64,000 nucleotides of DNA from Gammaproteobacteria bacterium (GTDB lineage: Bacteria > Pseudomonadota > Gammaproteobacteria > QZLD01), in NCBI GenBank assembly GCA_033852075.1, contig JAWSVC010000010.1:105683-169682 (forward strand). Direction: 5' to 3'. Under the pieces are notes generated by a model, which saw only the letters and a list, made by a program, of their open reading frames with translations, was not told the origin of the DNA and did not search any database. Of this stretch, positions 17,510 to 20,485 are shown piece by piece. Made by a program: the position numbers and the translations under genes. Each line of letters starts with the position of its first letter. Position 1 is the first letter of the stretch.

Positions 17510-17887
17510 TTAGCCTTGAGCTGCTGTTAGAAATGGAGCTGTCATCTCAGATAGACGAGCAAGATCTTTTTGAGCAAGAGCTTGAATGTCATTAGCAAAA
17601 ACTTCGCCCATTTTTGCTAGAGTTTGTGCATCTTCAGCGATTTTTTTGCTAACAGAAGTAGCAACTTCAGTTTGTTTTTTGATGAAAGCTTGTAGAGATT
17701 CTGCGTCTTTAATATCAGCAGCGTTTTTAAGTTGGTCCATACCAAGATCTGTATATGATTTTACAGCGTTAACTTGGAATTGGCTTAATTTCTCAATGTA
17801 ATCAACAGTTAGAGAGGTGATTTCGCCTACAGGCTCTGCAAATTTTTGGCTTTGCTCAGTAAGTTGAGCTAGAAGTTGTTCGTACAT
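17510..17887 (-). CDS. Phasin-family (PHA granule-associated) protein
   Basis: 125 aa, all-helical and Ala/Gln/Lys-rich, with the composition and length typical of phasins. This is similarity by recollection only. Confidence 0.5.
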   Translation of the reverse strand: MYEQLLAQLTEQSQKFAEPVGEITSLTVDYIEKLSQFQVNAVKSYTDLGMDQLKNAADIKDAESLQAFIKKQTEVATSVSKKIAEDAQTLAKMGEVFANDIQALAQKDLARLSEMTAPFLTAAQG

Positions 17888-18227: not shown

Positions 18228-18893
18228 TTAAGCCGGTAAGATCTTTTTTATTCCATTCTGGGTTCCCAGCAGTAGAACATTTGCTGCGTTAATTGCAAAA
18301 ATTCCAGTTGTTACTACTCCGGCAATATTATTGATCTCTTTTTCCATTTCCAGAGGATTTGTTATTTGCAGGCCATGAATATCAAGAATAATATTTCCGT
18401 TATCAGTAGTGAATTCTTCACGAAGTTTTGGTTGGCCTCCCATAGCTTCAAGTTTACGTGCTACTAATTTTTGAGCCATTGGAATTACTTCAATAGGTAG
18501 TGGGAATTTACCCATGGTATCTACAAGTTTTGATTCATCGGCAATACAAATAAATTGTTCGCAACTGGCAGCGACAATCTTTTCACGAGTTAATGCACCG
18601 CCGCCACCTTTGATAAGGTTTAGTCCAGCATCAGATTCATCGGCGCCATCAATGTAAACGGGGATGGTTTCATTTACTTCGTTTAGGTTAAATACCTTGA
18701 TGCCGTGTTCTTGCATTCTTTGGGTTGAGGCTTCAGAGCTTGAAACCGCACCTTTGATTTTAAAATCAAGATCAGCTAGACCATCAATAAAAAAGTTAAC
18801 GGTAGATCCAGTGCCAACACCAACTATGGTATTTGGTTTGATATATTCTAGTGCGGCTAAGGCGGTTGCTTTTTTTAGCTGATTTTGATCCAT
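18228..18893 (-). CDS. rpiA: Ribose-5-phosphate isomerase A
   Basis: [29 protein letters not shown]. Confidence 0.93.
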
Positions 18894-19053: not shown

Positions 19054-19674
19054 TTAGAGAGAATGATGCTCTATATGGGGATGTCTTTTGAGGTTATAAA
19101 CTGACTTTTCAGTAATAACTGCAGTAAGTGGAATATCCCATGGCTCACGTTTAAGTTTGTCTATATGTTGAAATTCATAGGCTAGGCCGATTAGTTTGGG
19201 CTTGTGCAAAGATTTTCGGTTTGCAAGATAGCTGAAAGTACGATCATAAAAACCACCACCCATGCCAAGTCTGTTGCCTTGGGAATCAAATCCGACTAGT
19301 GGCATTAATACAATATCTAGTTCTTTGGCAGTAATAGAACATTTTTTGGCACAGATTATTTCAGGAATACCAAATTTGTTGTTCTCAAATTTTGATTTTG
19401 TAGTGAAACGACAGAAATGCATTGGTTGCCATTTAAAATGGGGTAGGTTTGGCAGGTAAAATTTTACCGGCTGATTGCGGCACTTGTGTATAAGCGGCAA
19501 GGGATTGATTTCGCCGTCAAATGGCCAGTAAATCGCGATTCTTTTGTTGATAAAGATATTGGTTAGACGAGCAACGCGTGCACACATTTGTTTAGACAAG
19601 TGGTCACGTTGCCTTGTGGTAAGGCTGCGGCGTTGTTCGCGGATTTTTTTTCGTAACGATTGTTTGTTGTTCAT
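19054..19674 (-). CDS. ygfA: 5-formyltetrahydrofolate cyclo-ligase (YgfA family)
   Basis: LRKKIREQRRSL, LMPLVGFDSQGNRLGMGGGFYDRT. Start placed at MNNKQS (ATG 19674). The ORF-track N-terminal extension overlaps the 6S RNA gene. Confidence 0.8.
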   Translation of the reverse strand: MNNKQSLRKKIREQRRSLTTRQRDHLSKQMCARVARLTNIFINKRIAIYWPFDGEINPLPLIHKCRNQPVKFYLPNLPHFKWQPMHFCRFTTKSKFENNKFGIPEIICAKKCSITAKELDIVLMPLVGFDSQGNRLGMGGGFYDRTFSYLANRKSLHKPKLIGLAYEFQHIDKLKREPWDIPLTAVITEKSVYNLKRHPHIEHHSL

Positions 19675-19684
19675 ATCAAAAAAT

Positions 19685-19882
19685 GTAGGACATCCTCCGC
19701 TTGTGCCGGTCTGGCCGCTGCCCCTGAACCAACGGTTCAGGTGGGACGGATGAGTTACTTTGCAGGTTTTCCGCACGTGACGGATATACGCAACAAGCAA
19801 AAACACCTAGTGTCCCGTATTTAGTAATTAGGCTCAAGAGGTACCCAGGCCTTGTTCGAACACAGCAGGGGACGTCACTTTT
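19685..19882 (-). ncRNA. ssrS: 6S RNA (SsrS)
   Basis: Minus-strand sequence ...GUGACGUCCCCUGCUGUGUUCGAACAAGGCCUGGGUACCUCUUGAGCC...CACCUGAACCGUUGGUUCAGGGGCAGCGGCCAGACCGGCACAAGCGGAGGAUGUCC aligns with E. coli 6S RNA, including 5'/3' closing-stem complementarity. It is in the canonical zapA-ssrS-ygfA position. Ends are approximate (+/-5 nt). Confidence 0.72.
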
Positions 19883-19936
19883 AGGTTCTTACAAATAGTG
19901 AATAATGTCAATTGAGTGTTTCAAAATATAGAAAAA

Positions 19937-20239
19937 CTACTCAACTTCATCCATGAACAGATCAATTTGTTTTGAGATTTTTTGAATGCGTTCCAATGTC
20001 TTAGAATTATTGGGGTTGTCAATAGAACGATTTTGTAGCATTTCATGAGTGATATTTAATGCTGCCATAATTGCAATACGGTCGGTTCCTATTACCTTGC
20101 CGCCGGCTCTAATTTCGCGCATCTTATCGCTTAAATAATCAGCTGCTTGTAAAAGCCCTTCTTTTTCTTCGGGGGGGCAGGCAATAAGGAACTCTTTTTC
20201 CAGAATTTTAATTTCAACGGGTGTTGGTTCACTGCTCAT
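19937..20239 (-). CDS. zapA: Cell division protein ZapA
   Basis: 100 aa with a ZapA-like N-terminal domain and a C-terminal coiled coil. It lies immediately upstream of ssrS as in enterobacteria. Confidence 0.8.
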   Translation of the reverse strand: MSSEPTPVEIKILEKEFLIACPPEEKEGLLQAADYLSDKMREIRAGGKVIGTDRIAIMAALNITHEMLQNRSIDNPNNSKTLERIQKISKQIDLFMDEVE

Positions 20240-20266: not shown

Positions 20267-20485
20267 TTAGCTCTTTTCCATGGTTTTTAAGCGACGGATC
20301 ATCGCTTCTACACGGCTTTTGGCTTGATTGTTCTTTTCTAATAACGCAGCTCTTTCAGAGTTGAGTGCCTGCTGTGAAGCTCGAAGAGATTTGTTTTCTT
20401 CGGAAAGCTTAGTACATAGCGAAGTTAAAGATTCAACTTTATCTGCAAGTGCTGTTATCTCATTGTCGAATGAATTCTTTTCCAT
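20267..20485 (-). CDS. Small coiled-coil protein (ZapB-like, or the TIGR02449-type protein found upstream of zapA)
   Basis: 72 aa, entirely a heptad coiled coil (LRASQQALNSERAALLEKNNQAKSRVEAMIRRL). Confidence 0.45.
   Translation of the reverse strand: MEKNSFDNEITALADKVESLTSLCTKLSEENKSLRASQQALNSERAALLEKNNQAKSRVEAMIRRLKTMEKS

Follow-up and report, generated by a model that had tools for sequence, protein, structure and literature searches.

A 6S RNA gene (ssrS) between zapA and the 5-formyltetrahydrofolate cyclo-ligase gene of an uncultured gammaproteobacterium

Here, we analysed a 64-kb stretch of DNA (positions 1-64000; hereafter the window) and conclude with great confidence that the evidence as a whole is best explained by a gene for 6S RNA (ssrS) at 19690-19874 on its minus strand, whose product folds as a rod and, by analogy with Escherichia coli, would sequester RNA polymerase. 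6S RNA is a small mimic of an open promoter that occupies the housekeeping RNA polymerase. For the interval 19690-19874, membership in the family, structure, covariation and synteny are established, as is the presence of a template arm and of a release hairpin. The gene itself is ordinary, a canonical gammaproteobacterial gene of an already known kind.

Results and discussion

Identification of the gene

All 4227 Rfam families were searched for in the whole 64-kb window, with their gathering thresholds as cut-offs. The sole match in the window was RF00013 (6S/SsrS), found on the minus strand only, at 19690-19874, with 70.3 bits (E 7.8e-12; gathering score 46.4) and spanning model positions 1-187 of 187 without truncation. 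The original prediction, made from the sequence, had placed an ssrS gene on the minus strand at 19685-19882 and had named a search with the Rfam 6S covariance model as a check; this full-length match on the expected strand, well over the curated threshold, bears it out in place and strand, with model limits that lie slightly inside its interval. Both arm strings that it had quoted have one exact occurrence each in the window, on the minus strand at 19831-19861 (5' arm) and 19688-19743 (3' arm). Its claim of a match between these arms and E. coli 6S RNA is correct for shared motif blocks but not for overall identity, for which MAFFT gave about 52% in a pairwise and 47% in a multiple alignment. 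A blastn search in 'distant' mode with 11-base words found no match for 19650-19920 in 5,426 complete E. coli genomes, so that sequence comparison of this kind does not reveal the similarity to E. coli. JGI metagenome contigs were also scanned for exact patterns from the 3' arm and from the 5' arm (39-50-nt pieces of the 6S gene); both scans gave 0 matches and yielded neither closer relatives nor a hint of the habitat.

The G+C content is 54% within the 6S interval and 38% in its flanks. The MFE folding energy of the interval did not reach significance (z = -1.55, with 16 of 200 shuffles folding equally well). This is no surprise in an RNA with large loops at its core, and we gave the z-score no weight either way. 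Support for the 6S call comes from the covariance model, covariation and synteny, not from folding energy.

Gene neighbourhood

The gene lies in the following surroundings.

18228-18893, minus strand: rpiA (assigned with Pfam/NCBIfam)
19054-19674, minus strand: 5-formyltetrahydrofolate cyclo-ligase gene (ygfA/fau), 206 aa (PF01812, 142.9 bits, residues 4-189; TIGR02727, 169.2 bits)
19675-19689, minus strand: 15-nt spacer from the 6S RNA to the cyclo-ligase ATG, CCUACAUUUUUUGAU (read from the sequence)
19690-19874, minus strand: 6S RNA gene (ssrS), 185 nt by the Rfam model limits, with predicted ends
19883-19911, minus strand: candidate promoter, TTGACA with a poor -10 element (from conservation with L003, the closest full-length relative)
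19937-20239, minus strand: zapA, 100 aa, immediately upstream of the 6S gene (PF05164, 79.4 bits)
20267-20485, minus strand: coiled-coil ORF of the TIGR02449 family, 72 aa (71.6 bits, cut-off 55.4)

A UPF0149/YgfB gene and pepP are divergently transcribed from the series TIGR02449 gene-zapA-6S-ygfA-rpiA, and the annotated order in E. coli K-12, pepP-ygfB / zapA-ssrS-fau, is the same arrangement. Linkage of ssrS and ygfA has been described as conserved in gamma-proteobacteria (PMC4064990). The zapA-ssrS-ygfA context had been put forward as an enterobacterial one: the order is confirmed by Pfam, NCBIfam and E. coli K-12, but it is general to gammaproteobacteria rather than specifically enterobacterial. 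The source organism is an uncultured gammaproteobacterium of about 41% G+C, not an enterobacterium, and its nearest relatives are uncultured gammaproteobacterial MAGs.

Some further observations concern the surroundings. The TIGR02449 family is uncharacterised, and the ORF at 20267-20485 reaches Pfam ZapB only below threshold; a TIGR02449 gene precedes zapA in L003 too. Downstream of rpiA lies a phasin gene (17510-17887, minus strand; PF09361, 55.9 bits), which hints at polyhydroxyalkanoate storage. Of the 32 two-kb bins of the window (1-64000; G+C about 41%), 31 have a positive GC skew, with typical values of +0.1 to +0.28, irrespective of gene orientation. No tRNA genes were found in the 64-kb window.

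Relatives

Relatives were found by a scan of GTDB species-representative genomes with the cyclo-ligase protein, the window's own genome not being among them. By amino acid identity of the cyclo-ligase, the nearest were L002 (85%; QZLE01000107, Madre6) and L003 (72%; JAWSVA010000003, BHT14_PHBH_gam1); the remaining matches, from Thiotrichaceae, Porticoccaceae, Competibacteraceae, Chromatiaceae and others, reached at most 45%. A full-length 6S gene stands directly upstream of the cyclo-ligase gene in 16 of the first 20 related loci, with scores of 66-110 bits, a range in which the 70.3 bits of the window lie at the low end. The four relatives with no 6S match (L002, L004, L005 and L006) were searched again with permissive Rfam settings. 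L002 and L006 offer too little upstream sequence for such a search; the contig of L002 starts inside the 6S gene, of which the surviving 3' 64 nt are by eye the same as in the window, making it the seventeenth locus. For L004 and L005 (Thiotrichaceae, Cocleimonas MAGs), the search found no 6S in the 3 kb preceding ygfA at a cut-off as loose as E<=1; ssrS and ygfA are thus no longer linked in that lineage. Their cyclo-ligases are the next most similar to that of the window (44% identity).

In L003, the five-gene order is as in the window, with a zapA orthologue in the matching position. The 6S genes of L003 and L002 are orthologues of the one described here and differ in the spacer to ygfA, which measures 47 nt in L003, about 188 nt in L002 and 15 nt in the window. 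Two contigs labelled 'uncultured Halobacteria archaeon' (L024) and 'Pedobacter sp.' (L039) carry a cyclo-ligase of the gammaproteobacterial type (40% and 37% identity, respectively), and these labels are probably binning or labelling errors in public MAGs.

RNA architecture

Mapped onto the sequence, the Rfam consensus yields a rod-like fold with closing stem, internal loop, downstream helix, central bubble and apical stem-loop, composed of the following elements.

19857-19873, minus strand: closing stem, 5' strand, RNA 2-18 (covariance-model alignment and MFE fold)
19692-19708, minus strand: closing stem, 3' strand, RNA 167-183, pairing with 19857-19873 (on the same two grounds)
19831-19841, minus strand: downstream helix, lower (5') arm, CCUCUUGAGCC, RNA 34-44; predicted pRNA template
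19817-19830, minus strand: central bubble, 5' side, UAAUUACUAAAUAC, RNA 45-58, 14 nt, unpaired in the mapped Rfam consensus
19731-19742, minus strand: central bubble, 3' side, ACCUGAACCGUU, RNA 133-144, 12 nt, unpaired in the mapped consensus; '-10-like' region
19721-19744, minus strand: alternative release hairpin, CCUGAACC-GUU-GGUUCAGG, combining the 3' bubble side with the upper downstream-helix arm
19745-19816, minus strand: internal and apical stem-loop, RNA 59-130, helices 3-6, with G-C pairs adjoining the bubble

Standard pairs are formed by the window RNA at 46 of the 51 consensus pairs of RF00013 (25 G-C, 12 A-U and 9 G-U). The opposite strand could not form the nine G-U pairs, which identifies the minus strand as the coding one. 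That the two ends pair into a closing stem had been anticipated in the original prediction, which had also suggested folding as a means of confirming this stem and the central bubble; we find the stem in the MFE fold as well as in the covariance-model alignment, and the bubble in the mapped Rfam consensus. In that consensus, CCUCUUGAGCC (RNA 34-44) pairs with GGUUCAGGGG (RNA 145-154).

Conserved G-C pairs on both sides of the central bubble serve as a criterion for 6S RNAs (Barrick 2005, as cited in PMC4064990). All of these bubble-flanking pairs are present in the window RNA; in an alignment of 18 sequences, C-G occurs at columns 46/158 in 18 of 18, and G-C at columns 63/142, 64/141 and 65/140 in 16, 18 and 14 of the 18, respectively. 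The hairpin CCUGAACC-GUU-GGUUCAGG has an energy of -14.1 kcal/mol when folded alone, appears in the MFE structure as well and was recovered by RNAalifold over the 18 sequences (columns 144-151 with 158-165).

Covariation

The covariation set comprised 18 gammaproteobacterial 6S sequences (the window, 16 relatives and E. coli), aligned with MAFFT, onto which the Rfam architecture was projected from the window row. Standard pairs were found in 79.7% of cells, compared to 37-48% when the 3' partners were slid by 1-3 columns, a control that is inflated by taking the projected structure from a member of the alignment itself. Two-sided (compensatory) changes occur in 34 of 51 pairs, and none of 500 shuffles reached any of the five covariation measures. 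The closing stem (helix 1) shows two-sided changes in 11 of its 17 pairs, with 87.7% of cells paired, and apical helix 6 in all five of its pairs. The downstream helix (helix 2) is paired in 87.6% of cells over the 18 sequences, with an almost invariant GAGCC, and 14-18 of the 18 have G-C at the GGG/CCC pairs adjoining the bubble. Only 51% pairing was obtained for the variable internal stem (helix 4) in the MAFFT alignment, most likely because an alignment by sequence only fails there. An independent RNAalifold prediction has 39 pairs, 22 of them compensatory; it contains the bubble hairpin as well as the closing and apical stems and adds a GGCC helix within the internal loop.

The cleanest covariation evidence is the pairwise comparison with L003. 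The two RNAs show 20 differences over 185 nt, namely 19 substitutions and one 1-nt deletion in a stem; ten substitutions fall at unpaired and nine at paired positions, and none of the 19 breaks a pair. Four of the nine paired substitutions make up two full swaps from the window to L003 (C4-G181 to U-A and U87-A108 to C-G). Identity to L003 is 89% inside the RNA, compared to 50% in the upstream and 38% in the downstream flank.

Alternative explanations

Much of the interval is also covered by an open reading frame, which starts with GTG, runs uninterrupted over 19054-19806 and would encode a cyclo-ligase of 250 aa, of which the interval would contribute the N-terminal 44 codons. It is extremely unlikely that the interval is protein-coding in this sense. 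The cyclo-ligase domain models start at residue 4 when counted from the ATG at 19674, the cyclo-ligases of L002 and L003 start at a homologous MNxK, and in L003 a stop codon interrupts the upstream frame five codons ahead of the ATG. Taken together, these points identify the 44-codon extension as an artefact of ORF calling, in agreement with the original prediction, which had regarded it as implausible. L003 further differs by the 1-nt indel inside the interval and by a 32-nt insertion after it, leaving no conserved reading frame, and the substitutions track RNA base pairs rather than codons. A 53-aa minus-strand ORF within the RNA (19676-19837) was considered as well and rejected as coding, having no NCBIfam match. 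For annotation, the interval should be labelled ssrS and the start of the cyclo-ligase set to the ATG at 19674 instead of the GTG at 19806.

One might also read the structure as a cis-acting 5' leader of the cyclo-ligase mRNA or as a decaying 6S relic, either way with no stable trans-acting RNA, given that merely 15 nt devoid of a terminator or Shine-Dalgarno motif separate it from the cyclo-ligase start and that its Rfam score is low among relatives. We consider this very unlikely: the 6S RNAs of E. coli and Coxiella are also located in the 5' region of ygfA and are nevertheless stable and bind polymerase (PMC3299989, PMC4064990), gaps of 16-20 nt are common among relatives with high-scoring 6S genes, and bubble, flanking G-C pairs, template arm and release hairpin are all intact, with selection keeping the pairs, as the exclusively pair-preserving substitutions at 89% identity to L003 indicate. 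The probability that the covariance model matched a locally G+C-rich stretch by chance is smaller still and practically negligible, even with the MFE z-score not being significant, as the E value was obtained for the whole window against all families with full-length coverage of the model, the position is syntenic with 16 of 20 relatives and E. coli, and covariation supports the structure. We thus retain the reading of the interval as a 6S RNA gene.

Transcription signals and spacer

A consensus scan for promoters and terminators called no sigma-70 promoter or intrinsic terminator adjoining the 6S gene on the minus strand. Upstream of the gene, a perfect TTGACA is located at 19911-19906, for which two -10 elements were considered, GAACCT at 19888-19883 (17-nt spacer) and TAAGAA at 19891-19886 (14-nt spacer). 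TAAGAA lies only 14 nt from TTGACA; GAACCT likewise fits poorly, keeping only A-11 and T-7 of the -10 consensus, and would place the start at about 19875-19876. No acceptable -10 hexamer was found upstream of 6S at 16-18 nt from TTGACA. Unlike the sequence around them, TTGACA and a TATTTGTAnGAACCT block are conserved in L003, and a perfect TTGACA with no acceptable -10 element, both blocks being conserved, suggests an atypical or weak promoter. The 6S gene probably has its own promoter at the conserved TTGACA (19911-19906). As the TIGR02449 gene is preceded by stronger promoter-like sites, read-through from zapA is possible.

In the 15-nt spacer (19675-19689), a T6 run at 19679-19684 follows the closing stem; neither a Shine-Dalgarno motif nor, on the minus strand, a terminator was called there. 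The gap between 6S and ygfA ranges among relatives from about 16-20 nt (L014, L016, L011, L013 and L021) to more than 150 nt, and with several relatives at 16-20 nt the tight spacing in the window is not unusual. In E. coli, the transcript extends into ygfA, where it terminates, and is processed to give the 3' end of 6S RNA (PMC3299989). The 15-nt gap, the missing Shine-Dalgarno motif and the T6 run would allow 6S maturation and cyclo-ligase expression to be mutually exclusive fates of one transcript, an idea that we regard as unlikely. 6S RNA would then result if the transcript ended at the T-run or were trimmed at its 3' end back to the closing stem, in which case the cyclo-ligase would stay untranslated, and only unprocessed read-through RNA would be translatable into cyclo-ligase. 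If true, management of the folate pool would be coupled to the level of 6S RNA more tightly than in E. coli with its 75-nt spacer.

Proposed mechanism and significance

A 6S rod with its bubble imitates the DNA of an open promoter complex. For the RNA described here, we infer expression, exact ends, polymerase binding, pRNA start site, promoter and processing as follows. The gene would probably be transcribed from its own promoter, to which read-through from zapA may add, and transcripts would probably run into the cyclo-ligase gene, the ends of the 6S RNA then being set by processing as in E. coli. The RNA of about 185 nt folds as a rod with a long closing stem, an unpaired bubble of 14 + 12 nt and an apical stem-loop and, by analogy with E. 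coli, would sit in the active site of a sigma-70-type holoenzyme, sequestering it as growth slows; binding of the sigma-70 holoenzyme would be expected from family membership (PMC3299989, PMC9670815). Once nucleotides return, the polymerase would take the 6S RNA as template, start at the U at the bubble edge and copy the CCUCUUGAGCC arm into a short product RNA. The opposite arm would thereby be freed and snap into the hairpin CCUGAACC-GUU-GGUUCAGG, upon which sigma would be ejected and the RNA released.

This proposal follows the E. coli system, for which a start at U44, pRNA synthesis, hairpin-driven release, two promoters and processing have been described (PMC9670815, PMC3299989). There, the freed upper arm and the '-10' side of the bubble form a hairpin, sigma is destabilised and the 6S:pRNA duplex is released (PMC9670815, PMC3299989); the E. 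coli -10:DH hairpin (PMC9670815) is the counterpart of the release hairpin at 19721-19744. In the window, pRNA template and alternative hairpin are present as a capacity encoded in the sequence only, consisting of a pyrimidine at the bubble edge, the arm and the hairpin. The CCUCUUGAGCC arm is the putative pRNA template by comparison with E. coli (PMC9670815). In MAFFT alignments, U45 (window position 19830) at the bubble edge aligns with E. coli U44, and we predict the pRNA to start there, with the putative sequence 5'-AGGCUCAAGAGGUACC, beginning 5'-AGGCUCAAGAGG. U48 and U49 are predicted alternative starts, of which U48 would give 5'-AUUAGGCUC.

An uncultured gammaproteobacterial lineage of about 41% G+C thus keeps the complete 6S toolkit of bubble, template arm and release hairpin together with the ancestral order zapA-ssrS-ygfA, as is expected given that 6S RNA has been reported from nearly all bacteria (PMC8414754). 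The finding makes no open question testable.

Comparison with known 6S RNAs

Among the closest counterparts is E. coli 6S RNA (ssrS, b2911; RF00013), which shares with the window RNA the blocks UGUUCG, CUGAGCC and UGAACC...GGUUCA.GGG, the gene order zapA-ssrS-fau/ygfA with divergent ygfB and pepP, a similar length (183 nt in E. coli, 185 nt in the window) and the succession of stem, bubble, downstream helix and apical stem. Both also have a potential release hairpin and a U at the position of the U44 pRNA start. In contrast, the window RNA lacks the GA found before U44 in E. coli, the gap to ygfA is 75 nt in E. coli and 15 nt here, the proximal promoter in the window is off-consensus and ygfA is followed by rpiA instead of sibC/ibsC.

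The 6S RNA of Coxiella burnetii is likewise gammaproteobacterial, about 185 nt long, encoded in the 5' region of ygfA and built from three conserved domains; the gene upstream of it encodes a hypothetical protein, whereas the window has zapA there (PMC4064990). Experiments in Coxiella showed that this RNA accumulates in the stationary or dormant stage and binds RNA polymerase (PMC4064990). The principle is shared by 6S-1 and Ms1, rod-shaped RNAs with a central bubble that bind RNA polymerase. 6S-1 is released by pRNA synthesis and refolding (PMC8876501), and the partner of Ms1 is core polymerase, not the holoenzyme (PMC9130861). Both differ from the window RNA in sequence and genomic context, the latter being a 6S RNA of the proteobacterial type.
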